Assembly: GCA_001938485.1 (NCBI GenBank)
Contig: MQRK01192830.1
Coordinates: forward strand, 1 to 64,000
DNA length: 64,000 nucleotides
Direction of reading: 5' to 3'
DNA from: Girardia tigrina
Lineage: Eukaryota
A model generated the notes under the pieces. That model was not told the origin of the DNA. It was given only the letters and a program-made list of their open reading frames with translations, and made no database searches. Below, piece after piece: positions 1,015 to 60,226 of the stretch. Positions within the stretch are counted from its first letter, which is position 1. Each line of letters opens with the position of its first letter. The translations under genes and the position numbers were made by a program.

Positions 1015-2427
1015 TAACAACTCATAACTAAGCATGTAAATCTTTTAGAATCTTCTTTTCTATTGATTTCGTCGGTATAACCCCGTCTTGAAGAGTTATC
1101 TCCTCTTCATACAATTCATCGTCTAATTCGTCCAATTCCGCTACTGAATATTTCCTATTTGTGTACGTCGGACGGTCTCAATATCTTTGATTCGACTAAT
1201 TTTTCCTATCATTTTCCCATCGATTTCTTCCATTATCTCGTTTCCATTGCTCGCGTTCCTTAAACCTATTCGGGTTTTCATAACATTGTGTTCTTGTGTC
1301 CTTTTTTATTGTAATGATTACATGTCACATTTGGACAATCTCTTCTAACATGTCCTTCTTCATGATATGCCCAACAAGTAATTTTCCTGACTTTAAAATT
1401 TCTTCTTGTATCTTCTGGAATTTCTCTATTCTGCGGTCTTGTTGTTCTCCTTTTATTTTCCACTGTTTCCATTCATTTTCTCTTTTTTTTATTATATGCT
1501 GCCACTGGTGCGTTTCTTTTCTTTTTCTCATGTTCGAACATTCTTGTTTGTATTTCTTCAATCTCATCACATTTCGTGATACCTTGAATGGCTATTTGTT
1601 TTTGTATATCATAATCATCTATCAAGTTAGCATATACTAAATTCGATAGTTCTTTCTTACCCAAATTTTTCTCTACCAATTTCTCTATTAGTTCATCTGC
1701 CTTTCTAAATATTATTGTGGGGTCGCTGGAGCTAATTCTCAAATCTAACATTTCTTTCATTAAATCTAGTACGGTTTTTTCCTTGGAGAACGCTGCTCTT
1801 AACTTTTCTATACATGTTTCACCGGGTGCTGTTTCATACTTAATTATTGCCTCCGGAATCATGTATGGCGTGACTAAAAAGATTTTCCTTTCCTCCGAAA
1901 ATCCCCTTATCTTCGCGTACCTGTTGAAATTCTTTATAAATGCTTCTACTTTTGTCTCAGATCCGTCGAATGTTCGTGGACCTTTGACATTCGGAGTCAC
2001 GTGGTCGTGTGTCGCCATAATAAGAACACACAATTGACTTTTCATATTTTTATTTAAACAACAATTTTTATTGTCCTTAAGACAATCTTTGTCAAAGCTT
2101 TCGTACGATTGCATTCTAAACTAAATTGATTAATGAATTAATTCTTCTTATATTTTAGCAAATGGGAAATAAATATTTTAATAAAATATTCACTAAAAAA
2201 TTATTGGATAGAAATTAAAATGATTATTAATTATTTAAAACATATTAATTTGATTTATTTATTAAAAATTGTAAAATTATTTAAAATTAAAAATAAATTT
2301 AAACATTACATATTTTTAGATAATAAGAATTAAAATATTAATCATCCATCTGGATAGGAGAGACACATTTCCAAATCAACATACACATTCTAACACAAAA
2401 CATCAAACATTCAAATTATTCCTCACA
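1015..2427 (-). mobile_element. Ty3/Gypsy 5' fragment: 5' LTR (2018-2427), PBS and frameshifted gag
   Basis: LTR matches the solo copy at 48429-48864. PBS TGGCGAC at 2017. Gag MATHDH... (1473-2018) with double zinc knuckle TCWAYHEEGHVRRDCPNVTCNHYNKKGH (1278-1472). Confidence 0.85.
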
Positions 2428-2585
2428 ACCGGTATTTGGAAAGAAAATCAACTTCGGTAATACCGGTATTATGGAGTTTCAAAACAGGTATTAAAATTAA
2501 GAATCAATAAAGCATTTGAATAAAATAACAAATCAAGAAGAAAATGGATGACTCTTTGACAGGTACTATTTCTCGTATGGTAGCT

Positions 2586-4131
2586 GGATCTTCGGAAAGC
2601 GTGCCTCTACATTACTTTGGGGACGTCCAATTGTGGAGCACATGGAAAGGTACGCAAATAAAAACAAAGGCATAATTTCTATTGCTATTAATGCCACTTT
2701 TCGATCGAAAAACACAGCGAGTCTAATTTAATCATTACTAATCGATTGAATTGTCTCAAGGCAATTTTTATCATCCTGATTATAATTGCAGTAGATGCGA
2801 TTCAGGAAAATGTTGCTTGTCATCAGTAAATTCGAATTATCGTCTTTAAGTTCACTAACGATATTTAATTTTTTTATTGGTTTTCATTCAAATGTTTTAT
2901 CATAAAGATTTGTCAAACTGTCGATTGATAAAAACCAATTCGTTAATTTTTGTGAAAGTACTTTTTTTATCTCATTGGATTTATCGAAATAACGAAATAG
3001 AATTGAAAATCTCGTAAATTTGAATCAAAAACAATTTATTTTCATACACATGTTTTTTAAATCGACACACTCGATTTGTTATTGTTTTAACACATTTAAA
3101 CAATTTTTTTAAAAAAACTTTAAATTAAGTGACATTTAACAAAGAAACAATTACACATACACGAAAACTCATCCAATCACATTTTGAAAACATATTAATT
3201 ACATTCAAATACACACGCAATCATAATTAACATTTTTCAATTATATTTCATTAAATTCACACACACACATTCAATAAGACAATACACACAACACAATTAA
3301 ACACATACTCAATTACATAATTTACTTGCCATGAATTTTTATTTTGGTGATTCATATTCACCAATTTGATTCGAAATAATATTCAAAACAATTATCGATT
3401 TGCAAATGAATCCACAATCTACAAAATACCACCACGAAACTAGATGAAAGTGATGGTTTAAATATTTTATTTAAGTTACTTACTTTAATTTGATTAATTA
3501 ATTTATTTAATATTTTAATTTAATTGCTCTAATTACTTGATTTTAGTTAATTTGTTTTACTTTATTATTTACTTTTAAATATTTATTTAAGTTAATTTAT
3601 TAATTAAATATTTAATTAAATTTATTTTATTAACAACAACACAATTTGAATGCAAACATTTATTTACAACTCAAACAGATTCTTCACAACAATTTTCAGA
3701 GGTCATCTTTCTTTGATTGATATAGTTTTTGATTAAATATTCAAATATAAAAAAACAATGAATGGGAACTTTTAATATTACATTTTAATTTCTCATAATT
3801 TTATTGGATAAAAAGACATTATGTAATTTTTTAATAAACATTAATTTTTAAAATATATTAAATTTACTAAGTTAAAATCGTTTACTGAAAATATTATTAA
3901 AATTCATAATTATCAAACTTTAATTAATTAGTACTTAAAATTAATATCATTAGATTAGTTTCATTAGATTCAAATAATCAATCAAATAAAATATCAATCC
4001 CATCTGAGTAGGAGAGTCACAAATCTAAACAGCATACAAACAACAAATTTACCACATTCCAAATTATCCCTCACATATTTATTTTCCTTAAAATTGGCAA
4101 ATGTTCGGTCAAACCGGCTAATTTCCGCTCC
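2586..4131. mobile_element. unclassified insertion inside the hAT transposase
   Basis: GG...CC ends, flanked by (g/a)GTAGCT direct repeat (2579-2585 / 4132-4138). Removal restores the hAT reading frame MVAKD. Confidence 0.65.
3628..4075 (-). mobile_element. solo LTR (TG...TA family)
   Basis: Near-identical to 49335-49784; 5-bp TSD TATTT on both sides. Confidence 0.85.
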
Positions 4132-7769: not shown

Positions 7770-8154
7770 GCTGCGTTGAAGCCTTTTTACCAGTAATGTC
7801 ACAAAAGGGCTCAAATTCCGTATTTTTCGCTCTCCATAATCTGATAAAAACAAACAAACGTTTAATGAATAAACCAGCACTATACAAGGAGATTCATCAT
7901 GCAATACCATAATAAATAATATAAAAATCAATAATGCCAAAATAGAATATTCAAATAAAATAACTGTCATAATGTAAGGCATAAAAAAACGAAAAAAAAA
8001 TTTGAATCACCCTAGTATTTCACGTATACGGGTGGAACCTCGATAATTCAATGCTTAAACTGACCCCAAGATATAATCGAATTAAACGATAAAAATTTTG
8101 TATTTAATTCTATTAAAAAATAAAAAGAAAACTTAATTTATTCAAAAGATAATA

Positions 8155-8612
8155 CAGTAACGCACCGTCCTGGCGTATTCCATCGGTAAAATGCACAACT
8201 TACTACTGCTCAGTCGTTCACCTTGATCACTGAGACATCGAGCACTCTCAATACTTGTCTCTCTGACAATTACTATGATAGCCCCATCATCAATATACAT
8301 TCGGTCACAATGCTGCGGACAACCGATTATTTCCGCAGGCGTTGTCGTTCCATAAATGGTGGTCGTTTGCATAACCGATGTGGTCGGTTCGGTGTACGCT
8401 TCTAAAAAGGTGAAAAAAAATTGCAAGAACAAAAAAAGAATTTTTTTATCAATACCAAAATTCTAGTTTGATTAATTAAGCTTATAATTAAAAGAAAAAT
8501 CAACTCCATAAGAAAGATTTATATTTTCATCTATACAATATATTTTTGTTAGTTTATTAAAACAATTGTTTGTCGTTAATAAAAAATCATTTTTACAAAG
8601 AAAAAGTAAAAA
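8155..8612 (-). pseudogene. host-like exon plus upstream intron, copy 1 (Thr-rich then Cys-containing segment)
   Basis: Polypyrimidine-AG acceptor at ~8403 on minus, then AYTEPTTSVMQTTTIYGTTTPAEIIGCPQHCDRM. Direct repeat of ~13472-13930. Confidence 0.45.
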
Positions 8613-8629
8613 AAACATATTTTTTATAT

Positions 8630-11600
8630 GGTTGTGGTACACAACATAGCCCCCCCCGTTCGAAAGTCGAAAATATGTTAGGATGAGAGGAATGTGGGGT
8701 GGTGTTGTCAAGTGTCTTTGCGTCGTAATCGTACTATGACTGTAAATGTTTGTGTTGGTGTTCATGTCGAAAATCTTGCGGGTTTTGTTTAAATATGTGT
8801 TTGTGGGTGGCTGGATGAGGTGGATGAGTTTTGTGTGTTTTGTGGTGGTGTGTTTGAGTATTCAGGTTGCTCTGGTTGTGGTTCGGTGACGTTAGTTGTT
8901 GTATATGTTGAAGGTTGTGTGAAGGTTTGAGGTCAGTCTGAGGCGTTCGTCTCGAGTAATTTGCTTAAAAAGAATGATTCTGGTAGTGGTTTTGAGCTGT
9001 CTAAAAGTGGAACGTCATCAATGACGAAAGCTGGTTTCGTGTTGCTTAAATGGACTGTGGTCTCTGTGCCATCTTTTAATATTTTCGCGTTGAAAGAGAA
9101 AAGTTCTATGATTTTGTGAGGTCTGGTGTATGCTGGCTGGAAACCATGAGCTATGGGGTTCTTGAGTCAAAGGAACTTTGCTGAGCATTGTAAATGGTTG
9201 GTAAAAATTCTCTGATATGTGTTGGTGTTCGTTGGATGGTTTCGTTTCTTATGTCGTCGAAAATATTTCATGGCGTCGTGATTTCGGTGTCTGAGGGGGT
9301 GAGGTTGCAATCGGTGAGCTCGACTGGGAAATGAATTGGAGTACCGTAGAGGGTCTGTGTTGGGAAGGTGCTCGTGGATGTGGTGGGCGTGTTTCTCCAA
9401 CCGAAGAACACGAGGGGTAACATGTCTAACCAGTGGGCGTTCGTGTCGGTTAATATTTTCAGAGAAGTTTTGAGTGTACAGTGGAAACGTTTTAGAGCGC
9501 CATTTGATTGGGAGTGGTATGCGGAAGGGTGGAAAGAGCTCGCTCCTAGCTTCTTAATTAACGTGTTAAAAATTTCGGTCTCAAACTGTCTATCTTGATC
9601 TGTGATTAAGTGTTTTGCTACTCCGAAACGACAAACCCATATGGAAAGGAAAGTGCGGTAAACTGTTTCACTGTAGATGTTCTTTAGTGCTACAGCTTCG
9701 AGCCATCTGGTTGAGCGGTCCAACATGGTTTAAATGTACTCGTAGCCGAGGTCGTTCCGGACAAGATCGAATAAATTGATATGGACCGCTTCGAAACGAG
9801 ATGTTGAGGGAAAATGGTAGAGCGGTGGCATGACCTTCTTCAATGACTTGTATCTTTGGCATAGTGTGCATTGGGCTGTCCACGTTTTTATGTCCCGTCG
9901 CATGTTCGGCCAGATGACGCGGGTATTTAGGAGTTTGTAAGTGTTCGAACTGCCGAGGTGATGCAGGTTGTGTATTCGTTCAAAAGAATCCTTCCTTAGG
10001 TCTTTTGCTAAGATTGGGCGCGAAATTCTTGGTATGCTGGTGTCGTAAACTACGCCGTCTTATGAGATATTCTTAAAATGTACGAGGTCGTCTGGCGATG
10101 GGGGAAAAGGTGCGAGTCGTTCAGCTGTGAAAGTGGGGCGAAAAGTGATAACGTCAACTGAATACGATAAAAAATCGGCTGCAGTATTCTGTTAACCCGA
10201 AATGTGTGTGATAGTTAAATTGAAGTCTGAGAGGAAAGATATTTAGCGCTGTTGGCGTGGTGAGGTGTTCTTCATTCCAATTATGTACACTAAGGGCTTA
10301 TGGTCCGGATGATGAAACTTCTGCCTTGTAAAAAATGCCGGTAGTGTTTGACGGCAAACACGATTGAAAGCAGTTCTCTGTCGAAGGTGGACTAACGCTG
10401 TTCCGCGGCGCTAAACTTAGCCGAGTAGAATTCTAATATTTGGTGAGCGTTTTTAGATAATTGGTGTAAGATGACTCCTGCTGTCTGCTGTAAGGAACAG
10501 TGTCGCTTCTTTCTTTGGGTAGGCTAGTATTCGCAGATCTTTCAGTTGCTTTTTTAAATTCTTGAAATTTGTGAGGTGCTCTTCAGTTCAATGAATTATA
10601 GAACGTTTGGGACCTGAGCTGAGAGTAGACAGATTTGATGTTAGGTGTGAGCATTAGGGAATATAGCGGTGGTAGAAATGAACTGTTCTTAGAAAGCTTC
10701 GCAGTTCAGTGATGGTAGTTGGTATTGTGATGTTTTTGATTGAATGTAGCCGCTCCGGTAGTGGTGAGTGGCCTTCATGTGTAATGAGGTAGTCTAAGAA
10801 CTTGATAGACTTCATGATAAATGTCCATTTCCTCCAATCCACTTGCAAATTGTTTTCGTGTAGTCATCGGAAGAAGAGTTTCAAATGATTGAGGTGTTCT
10901 CGTCGGTTGTCGGAGGCCGTTAAGATGTCGTCGATGTAGGCCGTAGTGAATGAGAGGCCTGGCAGTATTGAATCGATATGCCTCTGAAAGGTTTGGGCGG
11001 AATTCCTCTAACCGAAAAGCATGAATAAGTATTCGAAAAGACTGATGTGTGTTGTTGTCTTTTGAATATCGGCCACAGACAGGGATTTGGTGGTATGATT
11101 TTCGTAAATCGATGGTCGAGATGTTTAGGTCATCTACTTTATGCAGAATATCGGTTACCAGCGGGAGAGGGTAACTATCGTATTGGGTGGCGTTGTTGAG
11201 CAAACGGTAGTCTTCGCAAGGTCGTATTGTCCCGTCTTTCTTCTGGACTATGTTTAAAGGTGATGCCCAGTGTGACGTCGATCGTCTGATGATTCCCAGT
11301 TTTTCTAACTCGAGGAAATCTGCCTCTGTCATGGCGCATCGGACGAGTGCTAATTCTCTGCGCTTTTGGCGGATGGGTTACATGGAAGGTGTCATGATCA
11401 AATGTTCTGTGTGGGACTTTTTGTCGCAGGTGAGGTTTTTATAGATGGTGTATGGGCAGTTCTTGTAAATGAAATCCTCCAATTCTGAATGGTAGCGTTT
11501 TGTTTTTCGAGTGGTGTTGGTGGTGTAATGGGATCATTTGGTTCGAGGTTTGGTGGAGTAGACTTTTATAAGTTGCTTAACGACGGTATGGGGTTCTTTA

Positions 11601-13265
11601 AACTAGGTTTGGCAATGTAGTCGTCATGCACGTGTTCTGGCCGTGGTAGTAGTTGTTTGTTATGGCCAGCAGTCTATGATGTGTCAGGAAATCGGCGCCT
11701 AGAATGGGTTGACGTACGTCTATGATAAAAAATTTCCAAGTGAAAATGGATCGGGTATGTGGCAGTGTAAAAACTAGATATTTGAAACCAGTTGATTTGA
11801 TCGGTATGCCACTAGCTACTTGAAAATATCCCTCGTAAGGGTAGTCTGGTGTGGCGTAAGAGAATGTTGGTATCACCGAAACGGTCGATCCAGTATCCAC
11901 GAGTAGGTCTTAAATCGAGGCGGAGTCATTGTTTATGGTTGCTGGCACGGTGAAGGTTGTTGTTGCTGAAAGTTGATAAAAGTTGGAAAAATTTTAGGTT
12001 TGTCGGCGAAATAAACGCCCTTACCAGGGGTAGCAATGCCCTCTGGTGGGCCGTTCAGTTGAAAGGTTAATTTTCGAAGTTGTTTTTCCAGGTGCTGTTT
12101 TGTACGCCTTTCCGGGCATTTGCCCTAAAGGTGGCGTCGTAGACGTATATGTTCGGTTTATACTCGGGTTTGTAATATTTGCAATAGAAATTACAATGTT
12201 TCGCCGATTTTGAGAATGTTTTGTGGTAGTAACATATGGGTGTAAAGTATGAGGTGGGTCGGCGTCGGTAGTTCTCTGTCGTGGAGTTCCTATTGGGTGA
12301 GCGTGATTGTCGGTTCGAAAGTTGTCCTACAGGGAGAGTTAAGGATGCGATGGATTCCTGTAGTCTTCTGGTGGTGTACTTGAGTGCCTGTAGGTCGTCT
12401 TTGGTCGAAGCGGTGATCGACGGTGCTGTTTGATTTTGTCTTATTATGTCGATGGATTTATCGGCAATTGCCGGAATCGGAAGGGGGTACGATGGCGAGA
12501 AGGAGGTTCAAGTTTGACGGCAAACTTTGAATGAATAAACGTCTCAGTAAATCGTCACATGTCGTGAAGGCTGCGTTCAATGAAGTTAGCTCAAGTTTGG
12601 CCTTTCTCAGGTATTCTGAGGGTAAGGTATTTCCGATTGCGTTGGTCTTGAAGTATCGTGCCACTAAATCTTGTTGATTTGGTTCGGTTAGTTAGAGATG
12701 GTCTCGTCAGCTCGTCGTAGTAATGGTCTTGGGTCAAAACTTGTGAGATGTTTGTTTTTCATGCGAGATAGTCGGCTGGGAGCAATGACAGAAGGCTATT
12801 GGCTAGGTGGAGCTGTGAGGTCATGCCTGAGTCTTTGGACCAACACTTGTGGATGGTGAGCCAGGAAATTGCAGATTCGATCGCGTCAAGAAAGAACTAG
12901 TCGGAATGTTGCACTTCTCCAGTGATGTTTTTTTCTCGTTGTCGGTTAGTGGTTCGTTCATTCTGCTACGGAGGGGTAAGTTTATTTCTATGAAGTTGGT
13001 GGCGCGTCTAAAAAATCGTTTAAGGGGAGCTGACTACACGGTAATGCAGAAGGTTTTGCTGTATGTACTGTCGAGACTGTTTGCTATGTTGCTGTATAAA
13101 TTTCGGGTCTGGAATATGGTCGGGAGGGTGGTGTGTTGTGAATTATAAACACCTCTATAGAAGAAATTGAGTGTGGGTTTTAAAGGTTGAGTCGGTTTGT
13201 GAAATTGTGGCGCGTGTACCCCTTTATGTACTGAACGGTTGCGCCGTGTGGTGTACCCCATTACA
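8630..13265 (-). mobile_element. Ty3/Gypsy retrotransposon, CsRn1/Kabuki-type, degraded; 3' LTR mostly deleted
   Basis: Gag CHCC motif CYYHKTFSKSAKHCNFYC (~12180-12235), protease VDTGS, RT YHQIPV / AYIDDIL, RNase H STFDRELL, integrase HHCC and ITDQDRQFE. PPT G-run at ~8650-8657 followed by TGT. Confidence 0.92.
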
Positions 13266-13339
13266 ATAATTACACTGATAATTGATAACACTGACACAAA
13301 AAATAAAAATTTACATAGAATATAATGATATGGAATAAC

Positions 13340-13930
13340 GATTATACAATAAAAATCACAAAGAAAGCTGTTAATGGGGAAAAATACAGTTGCCAGAAAA
13401 ATTTTGTTGATAAACATCGTCCGGATCCCACTTTGGACACCATTTTATGATACGCATATCGCGTTACGTGCACGGTAACGCACCGTTCAGGCGTATTCCA
13501 TTGGTGAAATGCACCGCTTACTACTACCTAGTCGTCCACCTTGCTCAACAAGACATCAAGCACTCTCAATAGTTGTCTCCCTAGCACAGTTACAATTGTA
13601 GCCCCATCATCAATAAACATTCGGTCGCAATGCGGTGGACAACCGGTTATTTCCGCAGGCGTTGTCATTCTATAAATGGCGGTCGTTTGCATAACCGATA
13701 TGTTCGGTTCGGTGAACGCTTTTAAAAAGGTGAAAAAAATTACAAGAACAAAAAAAAGAATTGTTTTATCAATACAAAAATTCTAGTTTGATTAATTAAG
13801 TTAATTATTAAAAGAAAAATCAACTCCATAAGAAAGATTTATATTTTCGTCTGTACAATATACTTTTGTTAGTTTATTAAAACAACTGTTTGTCGTTAAT
13901 AAAAAAACATTTTTACAAAGAAAAAGAAAA
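13340..13930 (-). pseudogene. host-like exon plus upstream intron, copy 2, with hydrophobic C-terminal stretch
   Basis: Diverged copy of 8155-8612 with stops and a frameshift. Continues into ...MFINKIFLATVFFPINSFL. Confidence 0.4.
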
Positions 13931-14561
13931 AATTGAAAATTTGGAACAAAGTTATATTACAACAGGAGTAAAAAAAATAATTTAACTTTAGGAATTCGTC
14001 CATTTTGTTTAGAACACTAAAATATTAGTAGGAACAGCTGTGTAATGCATAAATCCTTGACTAACAGTTTGTATCGCATCTTTAATTTCAGGGTTAGTTA
14101 ATGGAGCTGTAAACGTTAATGAATCATTTTGTTCTCCATCTTCTGTTTCAATATGATCGTCATCTGTGGTTAAGGAAAAAGATTTGTTTTATTTTGAACA
14201 TTTTCAATTATGTCTTCATCGGTTGTCATGCTATTACATGCGATATTCTTATCACACTCTAGATAATCATTTAATTCTTCATCCACGTCGGAGACAGATC
14301 TTAATAATTTGAAATTTTGTTCAGCAATTTAGCGAGTTCGGTGAAAACAGTGATATCAATCTCGTCTTGATAATTCTCATCGTAAAATCTTGTTTTTTAA
14401 AACAATTTTGAATAATTGTTGACGAAACATTAGCATCCCATATTCTCGAAATTTTCGTAATGAAATCCAACAAATTAGTTTTTGGAATTGGTAGTGTTTT
14501 CTCGATATAATCCATCATTTCCTTAAATAACTTATTCCTAAAATATTAACCTCCCCTGGCT

Positions 14562-19018: not shown

Positions 19019-21796
19019 CAGTTCCGTCTGACGAACCTTTATTCATGCGGTCACGTTTTTTGTGCGCAGTAATAAAATACTTAGTAATTGCTAAAATTCT
19101 TTTTGAACGGTAATTAAAAAATTTTGAAGTTTAATTTAATTGGTTTATTTAACCCTTTCCTGTCTGAATAAAGAATTAAATTGGCATCCTTAAATCACTT
19201 TTGCAACTTTGAAATGATAAAAACAAAATGGCGTTTGACAAAACATGTGTAAGAATAATTTGTATATTCGTCTATTGATCAGAAATAAAAATATAATTTG
19301 TATTTTTCCATAGATGCTTATAAAATATTAAAATGAAACATGATTCCATATGACATCAATAGTCAGGAAAGGGTTAAATAAATTTATTAGCAAATTAGAC
19401 CAGTTAATTTTGTTAAATTGATATATTAATTATTTATTCTGTAAGAGAGTGTTGTTGTTAATTTTTTAATTTTCGAAAATAAGAATTTTGGTTTTTAAAA
19501 ATTTTGAATTATAATCGAAATTAAAAAAAAATAATGGAAAATAGAATTAAAAAAAAGAAAATAAAAAAATGAAAATTTGTTTAAATAACAAACAATTATA
19601 AATCAAAATCATTTAAATAAACAGACCATCATGTCCAAGAGAAAATTGGAATCCATTAGCAATGGTTCAAGGAAACGTGTATCTTTAAAATTTAAAGTTG
19701 AATGGCTTGACGTGATCGTGATGACTCCAATCCCAACCTTTCGTGATATAAAACCAGTGAAACTCAACGAAATTTTTGACTATATTGAAGAACAGGATGC
19801 TGTAAAATGTAAAATGTGTGCAGAAATAAAAGCGACCGGGGAATTCTCTTCTGGAAAACAATGGAGTGAGTGGAAACTGGATTATCTCAAGCGCATTTGC
19901 TACAAAAAAATCACCTATAAGCTGTAGAAACAATTCGTAATCGGAAAAATGGTGGAATAGTTCGATTGCTGCAAGAAACAGAGGAAGAATCACGGCAAGA
20001 AACTTTCAAATGCAACCAAGCTTCAAAAGAAAAAATACAGGTATTAATTGACAACGTTATTTTAACCATAACAATTATTACATCCATTAATGCCGTTCAA
20101 AGCATTAATGAGCATATGTCAAAATATATTTCTTCTTTGCCAGAAAACTGGAGAGGAAAAAATTATGCTTTCGAATTTGTTGAATGTATTATTAATGTTC
20201 TTCAAAATAAGCAAATGAGAGAACTAAGGGCAGCAAACTATCATTGTCTTATAATAGATGAAAGCACGGATATAACAGTTCATAAAATGTTAGTTATGTA
20301 TATCAAGTATCGATTTGAGAATAAATACAAAACTATTTTTGCTGGAATTCAGGAGCTTACAACATGTGATGCTGATTCTATTGTGGCGACAATAAAAAAA
20401 CTTTTACCAAGTATATAATTTAGACCTGAATAAAATGGTAATGTTAACGTCTGACGGAGCAGCTGTAATGCTAGGAGTGCAGAATGGCGTAGCTGTGATT
20501 TTATGCCGAAAAATAAAACACTTAGTAGTTCAACATTGTGTAGCTCATCGAGAAGATTTAGGAATAGATGACGCATGGAAAAATAATATTCAGATGAAAG
20601 AGATAAATACGTTACTGAAAACTGTTTATACTATTTTTCATCGTTCGTCTCTAAAACAGCACAAATTTCAAGAATTGGCATCTGTTTTAAATTGTGATAT
20701 TTTGTTGTTCAAATCCCTTAATAAAGTGCGATGGCTTTCTCGTCAATTTACAATAGCTCCTATCGTTAGAAACTATGATGTGCTTATCCAATATTTTGAG
20801 AAAGATGTAGATAAAAATAATGATCCAATCTCAAAATACTGTTTACGTACCCTAAAAAGTGTTACTAACCATTTCACCATAGTGGTTTTAAACGATATTT
20901 TGAGCGAACTCGGGAAACTTTGTAAGTTTCTACAAAAAGGCGATTTGTCACCGATGGAAGCCAATGAATACGTAAAGGCGGTAATTATCAGAATGAAGAT
21001 TCAATACCTTGGGGATAAAGCCTTCTGGCGCCGAGAAGCGGAATTTATTTTATCCAAACCATTAGATGAAGAAAAAAAAGTAAATTGTTCACACATTATT
21101 AAATTTATTAGTGATTTATGTAATCATCTGGAAAGGCGCTTTCCATCGGAAGAGATGAGAAAATGGTCTGCTTTTGATTGCAATGCGATCGCAACCAACG
21201 TAACAGATTTTACTTTTGGGCGAGCAAACGTACAAGCCCTCATTAGTAAGTATTCTGAAATTCATGTGAGTGACGATGAACGAGAGGATATATTGGAAGA
21301 ATACTCATCATTTAAGTTTTTAGTTGCCGAGAAACTAAAAGAAAAAATAGCCAAAGATTTTAATAGCATGTTATCGATCGTGACTAGTGTAGTAAAATGG
21401 TGTATCTAGTCGAAATATGCGGGACATTTCAAGCCAACAGTGCGGATTGTGAAAGAGGGTTTAGTATTATGAATACGATTATTATTAATAAGTTGAAGAT
21501 AAGAAACCGTCTCGAAACGTCACATCTCGACTGTTTAATGAGAATTAAATTACAACTAAATGCTGGTATAGAAATTGATTTAGATGCGATTTATAACTTT
21601 TGGAGTAAGAATAAATGTCGGCGTGAAAAAAATTAAATTTCAAATATTTAAAATAAAAATTTTCTGTCTTTTATATTTAAAATAAATTGAATTTTTATAT
21701 AATTATGATTTATGCGCTCAGTTTTTTTTATTTATAAAAAGGATTGCGCATAAGTTTTTTTTGTGCGCAGCTGAAAAAAAATTAGAGGGAACATTG
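19019..21796 (+). mobile_element. hAT transposon (ZNF862/Blackjack-like), frameshifted transposase 19631-21636
   Basis: IIDESTDIT, LTSDGAAVM, HCVAHR, VRWLSR and SADCERGFS motifs. Right end ttagagggaacattg; gtgcgcag subterminal motifs at both ends. Confidence 0.9.
19153..19373. mobile_element. piggyBac-type MITE
   Basis: TTAA TSD; TIR ccctttcctg / caggaaaggg. Confidence 0.8.
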
Positions 21797-24228: not shown

Positions 24229-25341
24229 CATCATGTTATCCCTAAGTCCTTAGACTCGTTGATAAATAAGATTATGACGTATATGCCATTGATACTATAA
24301 ATAGATGAGCTATCATTGGTTACAGATATGACTCACCATACCCAACCTGTGTGTGTGAGTGGTGCGTACAGCCATTATTTCACTTTTTACTATAGACATG
24401 GACAGTAACGTCGAATATCGCAGCGTGATAAAATTACTGCTCCTGCGCAATAATAAAAGCTGTGATATTTTGCAGCAGTTGCAGGAAGTTTACGGTGACC
24501 AGTGCCCATCGCGTGCAACAGTGTATAATTGGATCAGAGACTTTAAACATGGCCGACAATCCGTTTTTGATGCTGAGAGATCAGGACGACCGTGTGAAAT
24601 TTTACCCGGGAAAAATGATTTGTGCATGAAGAAGATTCGCACTCATGGTGATCGCTTCATCAATAACATCGTTACACAAGATGAAACCCCGGTGAGCTTG
24701 TATGTGTCTGAGAGCAAGCGTCAATTTTCTGAGTGGTGCTTCCCCTGTGAAAGTGCTCTCCGAAAACTTCGAAGCGGCACCTCGCACAAGCGAGCAGTAA
24801 TGCTGACTGTGTTCTGGGATTCCCATGGCATTATTAAAATTGATTTTCTTGAGAAAGGACTGACAATGAATAGTGAGTATTATGTTGAATTACTTCGCGA
24901 TGTGAGAAAGTCTCGCAGGAAACCAAGAGTGTTCCCATTGTGGCTCCTTCAAGAAAATGCACCCATTCACACTTCGCGAGCAACTTTGACTGCTGTAGAT
25001 GACTGTGGCTTTCAGTTGGTTTCCCAGCCCCCCTTTAGCCCTGGCCTTACCCCAAGTGGTTTTACGTTGTTTAAACACCTAAAGAAAATTTTGAAAGGTG
25101 TCCACTTTCATTCAGTTGATGTCCTCAAGGAGAAAGTCCTTGATATTCTCAATTCTTTACCTCCAAATTTTTACAAAAATGCGTTCTCTGAGCTTGTTGC
25201 TCGCTGGCGCAATGGTGTTGATGTACACGGCTCATACATTGAGATATGATTTACTATGATGTCATGTACTGATTCTGAAAAAATAAAGTTGATTGGACTT
25301 TGCTTTCTTGTCGAGTCTAAGGACTTATGGATCACACCACG
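24229..25341 (+). mobile_element. mariner (DD34D), internally deleted transposase ORF 24359-25249, inserted in a hAT-type end beginning at ~24144
   Basis: TA-flanked TIRs ...atccctaagtccttagactcg / cgagtctaaggacttatggatcacaccacg. Motifs VTQDET, LLQENAPIH and PPFSPGLTPS. Confidence 0.92.
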
Positions 25342-37123: not shown

Positions 37124-37126
<3 letters not shown>

Positions 37127-39275: not shown

Positions 39276-39766
39276 TGTATATATAGTTAAAGAAGGTTCG
39301 AATATCTTAAAGTGATTTTCTAGCTTTCTTAACAATAGGAATAACTATCATCGAATGTAAAACCAAAGAATTTATTTAAAAGACTCAAATTAATTAATAA
39401 TATAAGTTATGTAGATGTTATTCTAATCCAACACTAAGTTTATAAAAGATTACAATTATATTCAGTTTCGTTGTTAAGCAGTCTTTTATTAAGCATATTC
39501 TATATTACTTATAAATAAATTCGGCAAGTGTATTGGAACATTCACAAAAGATAATGTCTTCTGTCTCATCAAATTAATGCTAACACAAGTATCATTAAGT
39601 AGTCGTTCAAAAATATCAAAATGAAAGTTATTTTCTGTCTTGAATTCATCGTTTGTTATTTTGGAACTATCACTTTTTGATATTTTTCATAAAAAAGTTG
39701 TAATATTTTAATAAAATGTCAATATTCGTATTTTCAGGGACAGTATTATATTTGATATTTTTCATT

Positions 39767-40735
39767 TTACCACGTTTTTATTAGCTTGCTTTCTTGTCTG
39801 TTTGTCTGTCTGGAACAAATCTTGCGATTGATTTTTCGACCACTTTCAGTCATCCAATTGAGCTGAATGTTTATATACAGGCTTGCTTCAGATGACAATA
39901 CAATTTGATAAAAAAATTTTGAAAAAAAATAATTTTTTCTAATTTTTTTTGCAAAAAACCACTTACGGTTATCTACAAATTTATACACTGTATTAGATAG
40001 CAATCTTTTCGTTTATTTTCATGAATTAAGTTCAAATTACCAAATAATTTTATTTTGGAGATTGAAATTTTTCCAAAATATTTTTAATTTCATTTTTATA
40101 GGCCATTTTGGCAAAATAATTTCTTTTCCATCTTTTTTTACCACCTTTTTCTTAGCTTGGTTTCTTGTCTGTTTGTCTGTCTGGAACAAATCTTGCGATT
40201 GATTTTTCGACCACTTTCAGTCATCCAATTGAGCTGAATTTTTTTATACAGGCTTGCTTCCGATGACAATACAATATTTTAAATCATTTACTTTACGGAT
40301 GTACAGAAAAAATTAATAAATTGAACAAATATTGTGAAAATCAAGTGATAATTAAGTGTAGAAGTATTAAAATTAGGTTTAAAAATTATTTTGAAATAAA
40401 ACTNNNNNNNNNNNNNNNNNNNNNNNNNNNNNNNNNNNNNNNNNNNNNNNNNNNNNNNNNNNNNNNNNNNNNNNNNNNNNNNNNNNNNNNNNNNNNNNNN
40501 NNNNNNNAATAATATTATTAATAAAAAAAAATTTTATAAAAACAACCACGTTTTTCAAGTATTACCAATGCACTAAAAAGAGGAAAATAATTTTTTTTCT
40601 AGACATGTGCGAAATTTTATACCTAACCAAAAACGTGGGGCATAGAAATGATCGATTGTTACTAAAAAGCAGTAAAGAGGAAATAGCAGTTACTAATAGC
40701 AGTAATTCAGAAATCCGCCCCACGTTTTTGTTAAT
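39767..40735 (-). repeat. rearranged partial duplicates of the gag region at 42386-42953 (direct and inverted)
   Basis: 39767-40025 and 40153-40275 match 42386-42685. 40508-40600 is an inverted copy of 42862-42953. 40590-40712 matches 42745-42865. Confidence 0.85.
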
Positions 40736-40975
40736 CTATCATTGATGATTTTTAAGAATCATTAAATCATTTTTTTATTTTTCTCCAATTATTACTATTT
40801 ATGTTATGGATTAAAACAAGCAATACTTTGTTTATAAAAATTTTAATGAATAATTTTATATATTTTGATATTTTGCACTATTTTTAATGTTTTTACTTCA
40901 AGGGAATGCTAGAATAATAATTAATTTAATCTTTAAAATAAAATCCAATAAATCTTAAAAGTATTATTATTTTAG

Positions 40976-41055
40976 TCTGTAACTTTATGGTCCATGAACG
41001 CTGTCTGCCAAATGTTGTATCGTATTGCAGTACTGTGGCTGTGTCTCTTGTTACG
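40976..41055 (+). CDS. DGKQ: diacylglycerol kinase theta, internal exon (end of first C1 domain)
   Basis: ttattttag| ... |gtaagt; 80 nt, phase 1 to 0; (V)CNFMVHERCLPNVVSYCSTVAVSLVT. Joins in frame to the exon at 56096. Confidence 0.85.
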
Positions 41056-41311
41056 GTAAGTTTTATTTTGTATTAATAGTAATTTTCTAAAGATTCTTAA
41101 AAAATACACGAAACTCTATTTATTCTGTAATAAGTTACGAATTCAACATAAACAATAATACATAAACAACTAGGAAATCTTCAAGGTCAAAAATTAAACT
41201 TTAATCAAAAGAAACAAATATTTTAATACGTAATAAAAATACCATAAATATAATAATAATGATTTCTGTGACTTTTAAAATCAATAGTAAAAATCAGTTT
41301 AGAAGATAGTT

Positions 41312-43670
41312 TTACTCTGATAAACTGATTTTTACAGCTCCCATTAGAATATCATCTTGGTAAATAATGACTGCAGATAAATCACCAATGAGATGTTCCA
41401 TGGTCTTTTGAAAGATGGCTGATGCGGATTTCATACCATAAGGTAAACGATTGAATTGGTAAAGACCTAAGGGTGTATTGATGGTCGTAATTGGTTTGGA
41501 TAATTCATCCAGTGGCACTTGCCAGTAGACAGCAGACAAGTCAAGTTTAGCAAATTTTTACATTCGAGACATTTTACTTAGAGATAATTCAACATTAGGA
41601 ATTGGGTACGACTCATAACAGAATCGGCTGTTTATTCCCATTTTATAGTCACCACAAATCCTAACAGATCCACCAGACTTCTGATGACTACAATTGGAGA
41701 TGCCCATTCGGAACCACCTTCAACTCTGGAGATGATTCCACCCTTCTCCATTTCCAATAGTTCGTTCATTGTCAAAGACTGAATATGAATTGGAAGATTT
41801 CTAGTTTCAAAGTAACATGGGTGACTTCCATCTTTAACACGTATTCTGGCTTTGTAGAAATTGACTTGTCCAAGATTTTCGTACTTAACGTGATTGATAA
41901 CGACATTCGATTTTGACATATTGATAAGATCTGTGCCAATGAGTCCGTCAGCTTTATTATTCATAGTGATGATAAAATTTGTTCTCTATTTCAACTAAAG
42001 CTTCCATTTCTCCAATAATTTTCAACAGAGAACCATCGTACATCCTCAGTTTTTTCTCCGATTTCTTTAGATTTGGCTTTCCAATTTTCATCCAAAAATT
42101 TCATGGTAATATGGAAATAGAAGCTCCTGTATCCAATTGCATCGGAAGCACAGCATTATTAATGACCATTTTACAAAGTTCTCCTTTTCCATCAGTAAAA
42201 CATTTCTCATCCATTTTATTTTCTAATTTCAAGGAATGCGTTGGCTTTGACCGGCATTGAGAAGCAAAATGATTATTCTTCAGATATTTATTGCAGATTT
42301 TGCCTTATGCTGGACATTTTCTACGAGTGTGGATTTTTCAACAATATCCACATTGTTGTCCTGAACGGACCTGATTTTTTTGATTTTTACCACGTTTTTA
42401 TTAGCTTGCTTTCTTGTCTGTTTGTCTGTCTGGAACAAATCTTGCGATTGATTTTTCGACCACTTTCAGTCATCCAATTGAGCTGAATTTTTTATACTGG
42501 CTTGCTTCAGATGACAATACAATTTGATAAAGAACTTTTTGAAAAAAAATAATTTTTTCTAATTTTATTTGCAAAAAACCACTTACGATTATCTACAAAT
42601 TTATACACTGTATTAAATAGCAATCTTTTCGTTTATTTTCATGGATGAAGTTTTATACAGGCTTGCTTCCGATGACAATACAATTTGATAAAAAAAATTT
42701 TGAAAAAAAGTCCTAAATGATAACTAAAAATAGTTAAATAATAATTTTTTTTCTAGACATGTGCGAAATTTTATACCTAACCAAAAACGTGGGGCATAGA
42801 AATGATCGATTGTTACTAAAAAGCAGTAAAGAGGAAATAGCAGTTACTATAGCAGTAATTCAGAAAAAAATTATTTTCCTCTTTTTAGTGCATTGGTAAT
42901 GCTTGAAAAACGTGGTTGTTTTTATAAAAAATTTTTTTATTAATAATATTATTGTCTATATAGTCAACATTCACGTTATTTTTGTCTTCCATAAAGATTT
43001 TGATTTGTTCTTGATTTTGAATAAAATCCACAGTTGTTCTAACATACATCTCCTTAATCTGATTTGCCTGTAACACTGTTAGTTTCATTTCTGATGAATG
43101 TAAACCGGAAAAGAACTTCAAAAGTAGCATGTCATCTTCTCCATTCATTTTATGGAATTTGCAAAAAAAATTTGAATAGTAAATATTAATAGGTTCATCA
43201 GGCATTTGAACAGTTTCCAAAAATCGTGTTCTTTCAGCAATTAATAATCTCACTTTGGGAGCAATATAATCCAATATACAAATTCTATTTCTTCATATCT
43301 GGCTTCCGATAAAATCCTTGGATGTATTAAACTTTTGATTTTTTAGAGCCGTCATTCCACATTCTGTCATAAATAAATCCGCCTGAGAATTTCTATCTTC
43401 TTTATCGCTGACATTCTTTATTCTGTATTTTGCTTCAAAAGATGATATCCATAATTCCGCGTCTTCCGAGTCATCCAGGTTCAGATCAATCATCGTCGCC
43501 ATTGATAAGTCATTAAGTATTGAACAACAAGACTAAAATAGACAAGTAGTAAATTATTTAAACTGAGAGCTTTATCACACGCATTTAAACAATTAACATT
43601 TATTTATAATTCATACATATATAACGATTGGGTTTTTCCCAATTACATAAAAGTAATATGTTTATGATCA
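41312..43670 (-). mobile_element. Ty3/Gypsy Mag-type retrotransposon, 3'-truncated (LTR, PBS, gag, PR, RT)
   Basis: LTR end ...cttatCA-a-TGGCGACGA (43503/43501). Gag knuckles CGYC*KIH..KCPA*GKIC..NHFASQC, protease MQLDTGAS, RT SEWASPIV, FNRLPYG and YQDDIL. LTR outer end uncertain. Confidence 0.9.
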
Positions 43671-48428: not shown

Positions 48429-48864
48429 TATAAAGAACACCAATTTGACTTTTCATATTTTTATTAACACAACAGGTTTGATTGTCCTTAAGACAATCTT
48501 TGTTAAAGCTTTCGTACGAGTGCATTCTAACTAAATTGATTAATAACTTAATTCTTATTATTTTTAGCAAATGGAGAAAAAATAATTTATTAAAATATTT
48601 ACTCAAAACTTAATGGATAAAAATTAAAATGATTATTAATTATTTTAAAAATTTTAATTCGTTATTTTATTAAAAATTGTAAAAATTAATAAACTAATTT
48701 CAAATTTTACAATTATTTTAAATTAGAAATAAATTTAAACATTACATATTTTTAGATAATAAGAATTCAAATAATAATCATCCATCTGGATAGGAAAGAC
48801 ACAGTTCTAAATCAACATACAACATTTAAACACAAAACATCAAACATTCAAAATATTCCTTACA
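48429..48864 (-). mobile_element. solo LTR of the 1015-2427 Gypsy element
   Basis: Aligns over its full length to 2018-2427. TSD CTTTT/CTTTA; ends TG...TA. Confidence 0.9.
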
Positions 48865-49334: not shown

Positions 49335-49784
49335 TATTAACAACATCACAATTTGAATGCAAACATTTATTTACAACACAAACAGATTCTTCACAACAAT
49401 TTTCAGAAGTCATCTTTCTTTGATTGATATAGCTTTTGATTAACTATTCAAATATGAAAAAATCAATGAATGAGAAATTTTAATATTACATTTTAATTTC
49501 TCATAATTTAATTGGATAAAAAGACATTATGTAATTTTTTAAATAAACATTAATTTTTAAAATATATTAAATTTACTAAGTTAAAATCGTTTACTGAAAA
49601 TATTATTAAAATTCATAATTATCAAACTTTAATTAATTAGTACTTAAAATTAATATCATTAAATTAATTTCATTAGATTCAAATAATCAATCAATAAACA
49701 TATCAATCCCATCTGAGTAGGAGAGTCACAAATCTAAACAGCATACAATCAACAAACTTGCAACATTCCAAATTATTCCTCACA
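49335..49784 (-). mobile_element. solo LTR (TG...TA family)
   Basis: Perfect TSD GTAAA; near-identical to 3628-4075. Confidence 0.92.
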
Positions 49785-55119: not shown

Positions 55120-55875
55120 TACCCGTCCCTATTAGTTTCAAGAAGGGTACATTTTCGGTGCTTTGTAAACCAAATCACATATGGATATGATATCAATCAG
55201 ATTTTGTTGCGCTCAGATTGTGCGGAACCCATAGACAGTGATTCCCGTAATTGTGCTTTCATAAAAGCTCATGGACAGTGGTTTTCGGTATCTTCAGTAT
55301 TTCTGCTAATTCACGAGTCGAATAGTAAGGATGTGTCTCGATTAGGGTCTTGAGTTGGTCAGTATTGGAGGGTCTACTAGTTGGCTCTTTGTCTTTGAGG
55401 TTGAAATTACCAGCTCTGAACTTGGAAAACCACTTAAGAACTATTTTGTCAGCTAAACCATGTTATCTTAGTCATCAAATATTTTGTTTTATGCTTGAGT
55501 AATATTCTTGCTTTCTTGAAATAGCAAAGCATCAAGTGACGAAAATTCTTCAATGTTTTCATTTTTAAATCGGCGAGTAGCAGATACATGTCAATTTAGG
55601 TAGACAATATTTTTTCTTAAGATTCGTCAAACCATTCATATGTTTCCTATACCTTTGACATATTCTGACTCATGTCAGTGAGAAAATTAAATATTAAAAA
55701 ATTATTACAAATTATTGTTAATAATTTGTTTAAATAATTTTATTTGTGTATTACTAATAAATCTTTGAAAACAATTCTTACTTTTAATTTTAAATGGAAG
55801 AAAATAATTATCTGGAAATCGACCCAGTTAACAGCCATGTTTAGACAATCGGCACGAACTTTCTGAACAACCAAA
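55120..55875 (-). mobile_element. mariner 5' half
   Basis: TIR ttggttgttcagaaagttcgtgccg. Motifs WFSKFRAGNFNLKD, STRELAEIL and WVPHNL. Confidence 0.85.
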
Positions 55876-56095
55876 CATTACTTTCAAACATTTTCTTTGG
55901 TTATTAATATAATGTAATATAACCTAATTTTATCATCGTAATTTTTTTTACCAAAATATCGAATTTTTCTTTTATTTTTTAATTTACATTTATTTACTTA
56001 ATTATTTTTTCTTGTTTTATTTTATTTTATTTTTGTCATTCTTTTAATTTATATCTTTTTTGGAAATATCAAAATAATGCTACTCTTATATTTAG

Positions 56096-56198
56096 AAGCC
56101 CGTATCTCATTGTTGGTCTGAAAAGAACTATTTCAAAAGGAAATTTTGCAATGTTTGTCGAAAGCGTTTGGATGAATCGTTGGCATATCGATGTGAAA
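56096..56198 (+). CDS. DGKQ: diacylglycerol kinase theta, internal exon (first part of second C1 domain)
   Basis: tatatttag| ... |gtaatt; 103 nt, no stops; KPVSHCWSEKNYFKRKFCNVCRKRLDESLAYRCE, matching the DGK-theta PVAHCW..KRKFCxVCRK motif. Confidence 0.88.
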
Positions 56199-56734
56199 GT
56201 AATTTTTATTTTAAATAAATGGATCACATGTATGTTAAGCCTACCAGATGCCTTTAGAGTGTTATTTTATACTTTTCGAATTTTGGGGTTTTCATTGTTT
56301 TATAGAACAATATTGAGGCACGTGTTCTACAATTAATTAATTTTATGTGTTCACCACAATTGATTCAATTATGATAAAATTAAAAGTATATCGTAATATG
56401 AAAATAGTTTTAAAAATTAATGCTGAAAAATATTAAAAATATAGTAAACTTATATAGAAAAGCTTATAAAAACCTTGATTTAATAGAACTAGATCACGGA
56501 AATCAGTCTGTTTAATTTGTTGATAAACAAACAAATGATTATATTATTAATCATTCCATTCTATACTCAAACAATCAACTCACCTAGGAATAAAAATAAA
56601 GCTCAAATAAAAAAATAGAGGATGATGATTTATTAAACTAATATTTACAAGAATTTAGGTGAAAGGAGCGATTCATTTGTATTATATGTATATTAGTGGA
56701 ATAAATCGTATTCAATAATTAATTTGATCATAGT

Positions 56735-57021
56735 TGTGAGGGAAAATTTGGAATTTTGTAAGTTTGTTGTTTGAATGCTGTTTAGATTGGTGACTCTCCA
56801 CTCAGATTGGATTGATATGTTATTGATTAATTATTTAAATGGGATTAATGTTTAAATACAAATTAATTAAAAGTTTTATATTTATTAAATTTTCTGTATA
56901 TATATATATATATACAAAACATATTAATCAAGAACTATGCTTCCCACAGAAAGTCCTACTGATAATGATTCTGTTTGTGTTGTAAATAAATGTGTTCACT
57001 CAAATTGTGATGTTGCTAATA
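56735..57021 (+). mobile_element. solo LTR (TG...TA family), internally deleted
   Basis: TGTGAGG...GCTAATA with perfect TSD ATAGT. Confidence 0.85.
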
Positions 57022-58483
57022 ATAGTGTAGTTTCTTATCTTAATTTTATTTCTTTGATTGATTACAAGTAACTTAAAATTTCGGCGTGTCTTGTCGATAT
57101 TATTATTTTGTAGAAGATATAATCCTTATGTCTTGGATATGGAGATCATCTATCGGAATAGAATTCGACTTAATACACTTTATTCAATTAAAAAATTTTG
57201 TGTCTGTTAAGTCAATCTTATAAGAGGCTTACATAGTATCTAACGATGGTAGTCGTAAAGCTGAGAATTACATTAACTCGTTTTCTTTAACATTTCGCAT
57301 TACTATCATGAAATTAGTGACTCAAAATCCTCTAATCTTGGATAAACGTGTATAGCAAATCTTATTCTGTAATAGTTTATCAATTATCCAAATTTTAACA
57401 GACTAGTAAGTGTTTAACTTTAGTTATTTTAGAGTTTTGTTTGTAATTCAATTTTAAAAATCTTTATACTAGTCATGTTAAGATCTTAAAAACTGGGGGG
57501 AAGTTTTTGAAAAGATAGACAGTCTGAAATATAAAATTTAAATCGGAAGTAAGTCATTTTAAATTATTTATTAAAGATAATGGAAATTTATAATAGCATA
57601 AATAAATAAAGACTAAAAAATTGAGAAAAAAATCAAAATTAACAAAAAATGAATTAAATTAAATATTAAAATTAAAAAAGAATCTTTTATAGTCAATAAA
57701 ATTTTAAAAAAGTTTTTACAAAAAAATAACTAGTTGTCTAAAGATTCAGACAGATATAGAAATTTGAATAGTGATATTATTTTATGCATTTAAATTTGAA
57801 TAAGTGTTTTCTGGACTTTTGTTTTCAACTGAGTGATACACCAACCTTTTCTAACAAATCAATTATCATATCTTCGTCCTTTCAATTGTGTTCATAAGTC
57901 CGTCTCCAGAGGCGATTGGTTCTGTCTCAAGTGATTGAACTATTATAGCCTTACAAAACAAAAATGATGTTGGAATAATTTTATTAATTGAAAAGTTTTA
58001 ATTCACTATTTTAAAGATTGGAATATTTAAATTTTAATTTTTTTGTTAAAATTTGAATATTTAAAAATACTAAAAAGAAATTAATTAATTTATAATATTA
58101 TTTTTCTTTAAGTTTTAAGTAATTATTCTATTTTTTTCCTTTAACACAATAAACAAAAATATTTGTTTTACACTTTTACATAACAATTTGATGATAAAAA
58201 GGAAATCAAATATAAAATTCGATTTAGAGGGATATTTGAAAATTTCACGTATGAATAATTACAGCATTTATTTGTAATTTATTGATAAACATTGCTATTC
58301 TTTTACAAAACAATTTATAATATATAAATAGTTTTAAATCTATAATCTTTATTATGCATAGTCAATAATGAGATACAAAAAATAAATAAAATATTTATTT
58401 TAACACGGTTTTCTTTTCAGATTTATTTTAAGAAAATAAAAAAGGAAATATTGAAAATATATTCTAATTTATATATTGAAGTA

Positions 58484-58530
<47 letters not shown>
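58484..58530. repeat. (AAT)n microsatellite
   Basis: Direct reading of the sequence. Confidence 0.95.
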
Positions 58531-60226
58531 TTAGCAACATCCCAATTGTCATGAACACATTTATTTACAACACACAGAATCCTTTTCAGTAGCACCTTTT
58601 ACGGGCGGAATCGTTCTTAGTTAATATGTTTTTTGTATCTATATTCAAACATTTGATTAATAAATGAGATTTTATAATTATTAAATTTTAATTTGTCGAA
58701 ATATAATTGGATAAAAATACAATAAGTAAATTTTAAAATAAACATTAGTTTTTAAACTATATAAAATTTAATAAGTTAAATCATTTACTAAAATATTATT
58801 AAAATTTATAAATAAATGGTAAGATAATGACTATTAATAGATTATGACTATTATGACTATTAATAGATTATGACTATTATGTCTATTAATAGATTATAAC
58901 ATGTATTTGAGACTGAAATATGCCACCTGACATTATTTTTCATTTGTTTCTCTGTTACAGCAGCTTGCCTAGAGCTGGTGGAGATTTGGATATTGCAGAT
59001 TTCACACGGCGTATTGTTGGCCTTCTTGAAGGAAGTTTATCACAATGCCGTGTTGCAGAAGTTGTTGGATGTTCCCAGTAAACAGTATCCAACGTGTGGC
59101 GAAGATAGAAGTCTAATGGATCGTGTGATGTTGCTCGACGCCCGGTCATCCACACATTAACACTTCTCGAGAGGATCGTGAATTTTGGATGGCCATCATT
59201 CTGGGCAGATTCAGGTCATACCGAATGCTTAGATATTCACTATCAGTGCAAATCTCTCGTCGAAGTCTCAACAGACGAGCACTGCAGCTAGGGTATGGCT
59301 CTCATAATCCTCTGGTTTGCATACCTCTGACTCCTATTCACCGACGTTGTCGTCTTGCCAGGTGTAACCAATACAAGATGAAGGACAATACCTTTTGGAA
59401 GAGTGTAATTTTTTTCTGATGAGTCAAGATTCACACTAAAATTCAATGATGGAAGAATAAAGGTACACAGGCGTTCAGGGGAGCGATGCAATGATGACTG
59501 TATCCGAGAGCACAATCACTTCACCGGAGGAGGTACAATGGTCTGGGGTGCCATCGAATTTAGCCACAAATCGCGTCTCCTTGTTTTGGAAGGAAACATT
59601 AATTCTGAGCGTTACATTCATGAGGTCTTCGAAGCAGAGGCATTCTCCTTTGTTATGGAGACACCGGGCTATGTCTTTCAGAAAGACAATGCTCGATGTC
59701 ATACAGCAAGGGCAACGATGAACTACCTTGCAGCTACGTCAGTAAATGTTCTACCGTGGTCTGCATAGTCTTGCGATCTCAGCCCAATAGAACATCTGTG
59801 GGATGAAATTGGTCGTCTAATTCACAGTGCAAACTCAACTCTCATTGCAAACCATCATGAACTTCACCAACGTCTACTGGATAAATTGGAGGCCATTGAC
59901 CTATATGTCATCAATACCTTGTGTGACTCGATGTGCAACCGTGTAAAAGTATGTATTAAAGCTCGTGGTGGAGACACATCATACTAATCATTAAATTTCT
60001 GATGTTTGTTTGGAATTTTTCAAATAAAAGTGATGTTTTTCTATGTTACCATTTACTTTTGGCCACATATATAATTACAAAACTTTTAATTAATTAATAT
60101 TTAAACAATAATTTCATTAGATTTAAATAATTAATCAATAACATATCAATACCATCTGAGTAGGAGAGTCACCAATCTAAATAGCATACGAACAACAAAC
60201 TTTAAAATTCAGAATTTTCCTTCAGA
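58529..60226 (-). mobile_element. solo LTR (TG...TA family) split by a Tc1 insertion
   Basis: 58529-58810 and 60070-60226 align to consecutive parts of 49335-49784. Confidence 0.8.
58811..60068 (+). mobile_element. Tc1 (DD34E) transposon; transposase pseudogene ~58960-59987
   Basis: FSDESRF, MVWGAI, FQKDNARCH and W..*SCDLSPIEHLW. Right TIR ttaccatttacttttggccac, truncated left TIR aaataaatggtaa. Confidence 0.9.

Follow-up and report, generated by a model that had tools for sequence, protein, structure and literature searches.

TG...TA long terminal repeats in a Gypsy lineage of Girardia tigrina, and a probable tolerance of C or T at the U5 end

Long terminal repeats (LTRs) of Gypsy elements usually, though not by definition, run from TG to CA, and the reason for the conservation of the terminal CA in LTR elements and retroviruses is still called poorly understood (10.1101/137141, PMC5659011). 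The stretch analyzed here, positions 1-64,000 of contig MQRK01192830.1 from Girardia tigrina (the window; 29% GC, in an assembly of 1.43 Gb), holds several LTRs that end in TA. Is TA a true end of these elements and, if so, what does it say about their integrase? The original prediction, made from the window alone, took TA to be the end of two LTR subfamilies and a sign of altered end recognition by integrase. We find that the TA end is passed on through transposition, within a Ty3/Gypsy lineage whose TA and CA families are interleaved, and that the integrase of this lineage probably tolerates C or T at the penultimate position of U5 (position -2). The features concerned, including target-site duplications (TSDs), are the following.

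3628-4075, minus strand: solo LTR of family A, TG...TA, TSD TATTT on both sides
48429-48864, minus strand: solo LTR of family B, TG...TA, TSD CTTTT/CTTTA
49335-49784, minus strand: solo LTR of family A, TG...TA, TSD GTAAA on both sides
56735-57021, plus strand: solo LTR, A-like and internally shortened, TG...TA, TSD ATAGT on both sides
2018-2427, minus strand: 5′ LTR of a family-B element, attached to gag, TGTGAGG...TTATTA
2007-2017, minus strand: primer-binding site (PBS) TGGCGACACAC, abutting the LTR without a gap and serving also as gag codons 1-4
1473-2018, minus strand: N-terminal gag frame, MATHDHV..., 181 aa, broken near 1480
58529-58814, minus strand: 3′ part of an A-like LTR, ending GCTAATA
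60071-60226, minus strand: 5′ part of an A-like LTR, start degraded

All four solo LTRs lie where they had been predicted, with the predicted TSDs, and on the element strand each starts with TGT and finishes with TA. The LTRs of the window fall into two sequence families, A (3628, 49335, 56735 and the fragments at 58529 and 60071) and B (2018 and 48429). The fragment at 60071-60226 may be the other half of that at 58529-58814, with an insertion between them. The gag-attached LTR has the end TTCTTATTA and is followed immediately by TGGCGAC, again as predicted. The usual family-B reading at this end is TTCTTAATA, and position 2020 matches the usual reading in ∼99-100% of the depth in four of four public runs. 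Loose ends at 2427/2428 were found in three of the four runs, and at 49335 the contigs of three public runs (185, 36 and 42 contigs) depart from the window sequence. The zinc-knuckle part of this gag copy lies downstream and out of frame; no pol belonging to the element was seen within the window.

The consistency of TA in both families was borne out across the genome. Among the best genomic copies TA closes 30/30 LTRs of family A and 28/30 of family B, the remaining two reading TG and none CA. An exact 5-bp TSD flanks 22 of the 30 family-A copies; of the other eight, one is followed by a PBS and two are preceded by a polypurine tract (PPT). A 16-mer for the family-A end, TGTGATGTTGTTAA followed by A, C or T and then A, has 4490 genomic matches compared with 3 for the reversed control, these and the other end-motif totals being counts in a fragmented assembly and not numbers of insertions. 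Only 33 of the 4490 have C at -2, and the first 100 listed comprise 98 TA, 1 CA and 1 AA. The exact junction of TTGTTAATA with TGGCGACCAC occurs 893 times. Among 45 full-length LTRs of families A and B, 28 have an exact 5-bp TSD and none has a 4-bp, 6-bp or one-base-shifted TSD. Because exact TSDs are found in the 5-bp register only, the LTR boundary is fixed in place, as the original prediction required of a true TA end. The 28 TSDs favor A or G at position 1 and T at positions 2 and 5, and they indicate that TA-3′ ends are joined cleanly by integrase.

In four two-LTR copies of family B (L100, L105, L106 and L107; span 4.8-6.0 kb) each LTR ends in TA, the paired LTRs are 94-99% identical and the 5-bp TSDs are exact. 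In another two-LTR copy, L091, one LTR reads TA and the other TT. A metagenome scan gave one locus out of 73 candidate stretches. The metagenome contig L111 holds a third family (C) with TA at both LTRs. As a control for decay we used the CA family linked to integrase P0011, whose end has 6826 sites; among the first 100 listed, 93 read CA and 7 TA, and this is the scale of true CA-to-TA decay. C-to-T change at -2 is thus common in a CA family, and one may ask whether TA is itself post-insertion decay, or else an artefact of boundary or assembly. Either is almost certainly wrong. The family-A matches with CA are too few, the young copies have TA on both LTRs, the TSDs are flush and of 5 bp only, and the boundary is unchanged in independent runs and in the metagenome contig. 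The TA end is inherited, as had been predicted, and does not arise by decay after insertion.

The elements are of the Ty3/Gypsy type. Natural frames of genomic copies contain, by Pfam, gag with a CCHC knuckle, protease, reverse transcriptase (RT), RNase H (RH) and integrase (IN), in the Gypsy order; integrase lies downstream of RNase H, so the arrangement is not that of Copia, with IN upstream of RT. The best solved-structure match of the family-C pol, P0006, is Ty3-G Gag-Pol (PDB 7q5b; residues 236-956, E 1e-100), and the RT is nearer to Ty3 (1e-100, 4e-84) than to foamy (1e-34) or murine leukemia virus-type (1e-31) enzymes. The integrase has Integrase_H2C2 and rve domains and aligns to that of prototype foamy virus (PFV; PDB 3l2q and others, 4e-13). 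Since pol runs into the PPT and the start of U3, there is no space for env, and every sampled family begins with TG, unlike the AGT...AnT termini of errantiviruses. The departure from the usual Gypsy ends is confined to the finish, TA in seven families and CA in six relatives. Most copies examined are damaged by stops, frame breaks and deletions. About 80 relatives at ≥60% RT-RH identity in public assemblies have no specific family names, the 120 best RT-RH matches are unnamed or generically named, and Atlas clusters are generic Gypsy pol. No named clade is assigned because the RT-RH relatives lack specific names.

The ends of these elements are compact. The last A of the 5′ LTR (2018 in the window copy) and the TG of the PBS together make the gag ATG, and gag begins MATHDH in family B and MATTAH in family A. 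CA-ended relatives also form their gag ATG from the terminal A and PBS TG; a role for the start codon as the cause of TA was therefore rejected, since CA followed by TGG yields the identical ATG. At the other end the PPT, GAGGGGGA, abuts U3 without a spacer. Here the pol frame continues across the PPT as far as a stop codon inside U3, GAGGGGGA followed by TGTGA encoding R-G-M-stop. The PBS pairs exactly with host tRNA-Arg(ACG) plus CCA, over 11 nt in family A and 7 nt in family B. We take a tRNA-Arg primer to be a feature of the 412/mdg1 clade. Initial tRNA scans of eight loci and of three loci found nothing. Tandem arrays of tRNA-Arg genes are present at L167, L168, L183 and L185, with ACG about every 430 bp and also TCG and CCG. 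At seven loci (L217, L223, L232, L240, L243, L247 and L255) the PBS behind the LTR is extended, with as many as ∼18 nt complementary to the tRNA, and leads into non-gag DNA. These are likely non-autonomous derivatives, which would carry any cargo behind the LTR/PBS ATG.

The primer was also caught in the genome itself. Thirteen genomic chimeras consist of the 3′ part of the tRNA with CCA (CCC in one) fused directly to the complement of the U5 end, seven with TA, five with CA and one with AA. They are integrated joints of primer and cDNA, tRNA-Arg to minus-strand U5. Because the tRNA is joined straight to the U5 complement, the first base copied is the terminal base of the LTR, and there is no spacer. 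Ten of the 13 start at tRNA positions 35-40, as would be expected if RT stalled at a modified base near 37. The tRNA-Arg in the chimeras (L126, L169-L171, L173-L180 and L182) is the mature form with CCA; in most it starts at about position 38, and in two it is full-length. In L169 anticodon position 34 is G; this may be copied inosine, yet one gene in array L167 has G too. The sequence beyond the tRNA piece in L126 was considered as a CA sister LTR and rejected when a DNA search matched a neighboring repeat; the same end was later found before a PBS in L223 and L224. The cDNA ends would be blunt, as in Ty1, only if RNase H leaves no residue.

How TA and CA ends are distributed in the lineage was determined by linking integrases to LTR ends at 81 loci, together with PBS-side loci. 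Tail matching left 11 of 65 loci without a match, and L267, L271, L273, L276, L278 and L302 (GA tails or N-runs) were taken as spurious. The junction of AYA with TGGCGACCACG has 2555 genomic matches, and the first 100 listed are 45 ATA and 55 ACA. Seven families end in TA: A (P0009), B (P0015/P0004), C (P0006), P0008, P0010, P0012 and P0013. Six end in CA: P0011, P0014, P0024 and the more distant L325, L322 and L286. The CA ends are backed by TSDs at L335, L325, L322 and L286, and exactly by two solo LTRs of the P0011 family. On the RT-RH-IN tree the CA family P0011 joins the TA families P0008, P0010 and P0012 (98/99), and P0013 (TA) and P0014 (CA) fall outside the crown (100/98). The end state needs three changes on the pol tree, two of them forced by starred branches; one-change trees were seen in 0 of 200 bootstraps, and monophyly of TA was rejected by the approximately unbiased test (p=0.0014, 10 labelled rows). 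The labelled tree holds 10 families, with P0007, P0016, P0019, P0028, P0031 and P0043, whose ends are not known, left unlabelled.

LTR lengths are 413-531 bp compared with 197-301 bp in five CA outgroups. The P0011 LTR has a length like that of the TA families and scores best against their LTRs, and its CA state fits reversion or a retained ancestral state better than a swap of LTRs. All 12 sampled family ends share three bases, T at -5 and A at both -3 and -1; -2 alone varies, being C or T. The lower-strand U3 ends have these three bases too, which suggests that the positions concerned carry end recognition. Further TA U5 ends with other gag N-termini (e.g. MATTDIA, MATTPN) occur at L238, L239, L241, L242, L247 and L178; these stand outside the pol tree, and more switches may exist.

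Inspection of the integrase did not bear out a link between particular residues and TA. The active-site loop SSPYHHNTNGIIERQFRTIRDA and the alpha4 helix are identical in P0011 (CA) and in P0009 and P0012 (TA). In a column comparison of 84 sequences from 13 families, no conserved integrase column separated CA from TA families. One column does split all CA from all TA (979, P0006 numbering); it lies in a variable stretch and has a different residue in each CA family. TA and CA sister integrases differ at 16-36% of sites, and between families that differ only at -2 and share the catalytic loop, integrase identity is 75-84%. The DDE residues are kept, as are those aligned with PFV Gly218 and Arg222, and the position of PFV Pro214 is His. 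Except for D128, Y212, P214 and G218, the PFV residue numbers were assumed or counted along the alignment, and the role given to Arg222 is likewise assumed. His at the Pro214 position was ruled out as a marker of TA, as CA families carry it too; its presence throughout the lineage might, speculatively, be permissive without being the switch. In PFV, Pro214-Gly218 form a wedge at the viral DNA end (PMC6784120).

We favor, with reasonable though not high confidence, a lineage integrase that tolerates C or T at -2 of U5. The cDNA ends would be blunt and need no 3′ processing, as in Ty1, so that the -2 base would be only loosely checked. A C/T change in a founder would be copied into both LTRs by reverse transcription, and the state would then be fixed within the family by drift, in either direction, with the U3 end keeping TG (CA-3′ on the lower strand). 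Tolerance fits the data better than a TA-specific integrase because CA and TA families are interleaved on the tree and the active-site loop is identical across states. The altered end recognition of the original prediction thus holds in part: TA-3′ ends are joined, with clean 5-bp TSDs, but an integrase change tied to TA is not supported, the families being interleaved. It is less likely than not that, through blunt ends and a His in place of the conserved loop proline, the integrase of the whole Gypsy lineage reads T-x-A-Y-A-3′ and not an invariant CA.

Several points count against tolerance. Among the 12 sampled families U3 is never TA at the family level, of which plain drift gives no account. 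A search for LTR-LTR junctions gave 11 hits with spacers of 2 or 4 nt and none with 0 or 1 nt. Ty1 integrase, though its substrates are blunt-ended, requires CA in vitro at physiological metal levels (PMC8487063), and for this reason blunt ends alone do not account for tolerance. Of the near homologues, with CA families among them, 71 of 74 have His at the Pro214 position, as do 27 of 43 distant relatives, so that this residue does not follow TA. The families that bear the switches have few links: one locus with IN and 3′ LTR for P0011 (L313), two PBS-side loci for P0013 (L244, L250) and one two-LTR locus for P0014 (L335). Recombination between families may affect the 10-family tree, and we infer tolerance from genomes alone.

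Other explanations deserve consideration. The -2 base might be set by an overlapping function and not by drift, with an integrase that merely puts up with T. In the context of the gag start (TAAT-ATG-G or TAAC-ATG-G) this base stands at -1, and it is also the second to be copied once the tRNA has primed synthesis; T may accordingly be favored in some families by translation, by the onset of reverse transcription or by removal of the primer. Both TA and CA families build the gag ATG from the terminal A, and the start of U3 encodes the last codon and stop of pol, which might account for variation at U5 and its absence at U3. However, CA families share the ATG, the primer and the flush junction, they have comparable copy numbers (6826 versus 4490 end motifs), and no covarying base was identified; we consider this explanation unlikely. 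It is also conceivable that nothing is specific to the lineage, in that LTR integrases in general tolerate a weak U5 when U3 is canonical and TA became fixed in some founders through AT-biased mutation in a genome of 29% GC. In plant Copia, TGTA and further variants of a single base have arisen repeatedly (10.1101/137141, PMC5659011, PMC9804982), Ty1 is less conserved at U5 than at U3 (PMC8487063), and CA-to-TA change in 7 of 100 listed CA-family copies exceeds the 33 of 4490 in the other direction. On the other hand, non-TGCA ends make up ∼1% of plant LTR elements (PMC9804982), compared with TA at 45 of the first 100 listed AYA junctions here, and loss of CA reduces coordinated retroviral integration (PMC2857682). 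Generic tolerance therefore appears distinctly unlikely.

A switch of integrase specificity to TA, through residues outside the catalytic loop or combinations of residues, seems very unlikely. TA is fixed at >99% in family A, the divergence between TA and CA sister integrases leaves room for hidden changes, and like divergence has been argued for the TGTT elements of pear (PMC5659011). The same enzyme would still have to join CA at U3, though, the TA families are not one clade and share their active-site loop with CA families, and the sole separating column is variable. A lineage integrase tolerant of C or T at -2 thus remains our preferred reading.

TG..TA ends have been published for plant Copia elements, including AcCOPIA1 of onion (PMC5659011) and a lotus TGTA group of 941 copies (PMC9804982), and what is described here is not a new class of mechanism. 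These plant elements resemble ours in their terminal dinucleotides and, as seen in lotus, in a third terminal base that is the least constrained and in clusters of different ends that include TGCA (PMC9804982). They differ in that ours have the Gypsy order (RT-RH-IN) and lie outside plants, about half of the PBS junctions sampled for the tRNA-Arg(ACG) primer read TA, the LTRs are not shortened and one CA family sits within the TA families. In Saccharomyces cerevisiae, Ty1 has flush ends without 3′ processing, which flush PBS and PPT would suggest here as well, and its U5 is likewise the weaker end; it is a Copia-type element, all 60 of its LTRs end in CA and its integrase has the requirement for CA given above (PMC8487063). 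Ty3 differs in processing its ends (PMC8487063). The Drosophila errantiviruses gypsy, ZAM and Idefix are also Gypsy-group elements of animals with ends other than TG/CA, namely AGT...AnT, and have env (PMC5408687, PMC3601003), whereas here U3 stays TG, -2 of U5 alone changes and no room is left for env after pol. PFV integrase shares the DDE, Gly218 and Arg222 positions and differs in having Pro214 where ours has His. No animal Gypsy element with TG..TA ends was found in searches of an open-access paper library, Repbase, Dfam and GyDB being outside the search. The occurrence of TG..TA LTRs in Candida was not confirmed in passages of PMC4139406 and PMC7175516.

The window contains other repeats. 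At 8154-13932 (minus strand) there is another Gypsy-like element; its LTRs, of ∼460 bp and 89% identical, start with TGTTG, its PPT is rich in G and its PBS starts with TGGTGTCC. Integrase fragments lie between 114-bp direct repeats at 62900-63919 (minus strand), and one of them shares its last 14 residues with the more distant relative P0132. At 39753-42953, direct and inverted repeats are nested around gag/RT-like fragments (41632-43292). Judging by motifs, we take the sequence at 59409-59768 (plus strand), between the two A-like LTR halves, to be a Tc1-like transposase fragment, that at 24359-25249 (plus strand) to be a mariner-like transposase frame and those at 19589-21409 (plus strand) to be hAT-like transposase fragments.

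For annotation, thousands of LTRs in the 1.43-Gb genome end in TA. It had been predicted that default TG..CA finders would miss them. Runs restricted to strict TGCA would do so; as a general statement this was too strong, as TGTA is among the non-canonical motifs of LTR_retriever and LTRharvest has no motif by default (10.1101/137141). The TA end itself is of less value than the pairing of sister families with CA and with TA, through which the CA rule can be put to the test. Highly successful families that differ just at -2 and have the same catalytic loop offer a ready comparison for assays of end recognition. If the integrase does read T-x-A-Y-A-3′, about half of the insertions of the lineage would be invisible to strict TG..CA annotation, and the sisters that toggle between CA and TA would be a natural experiment on the conservation of CA.

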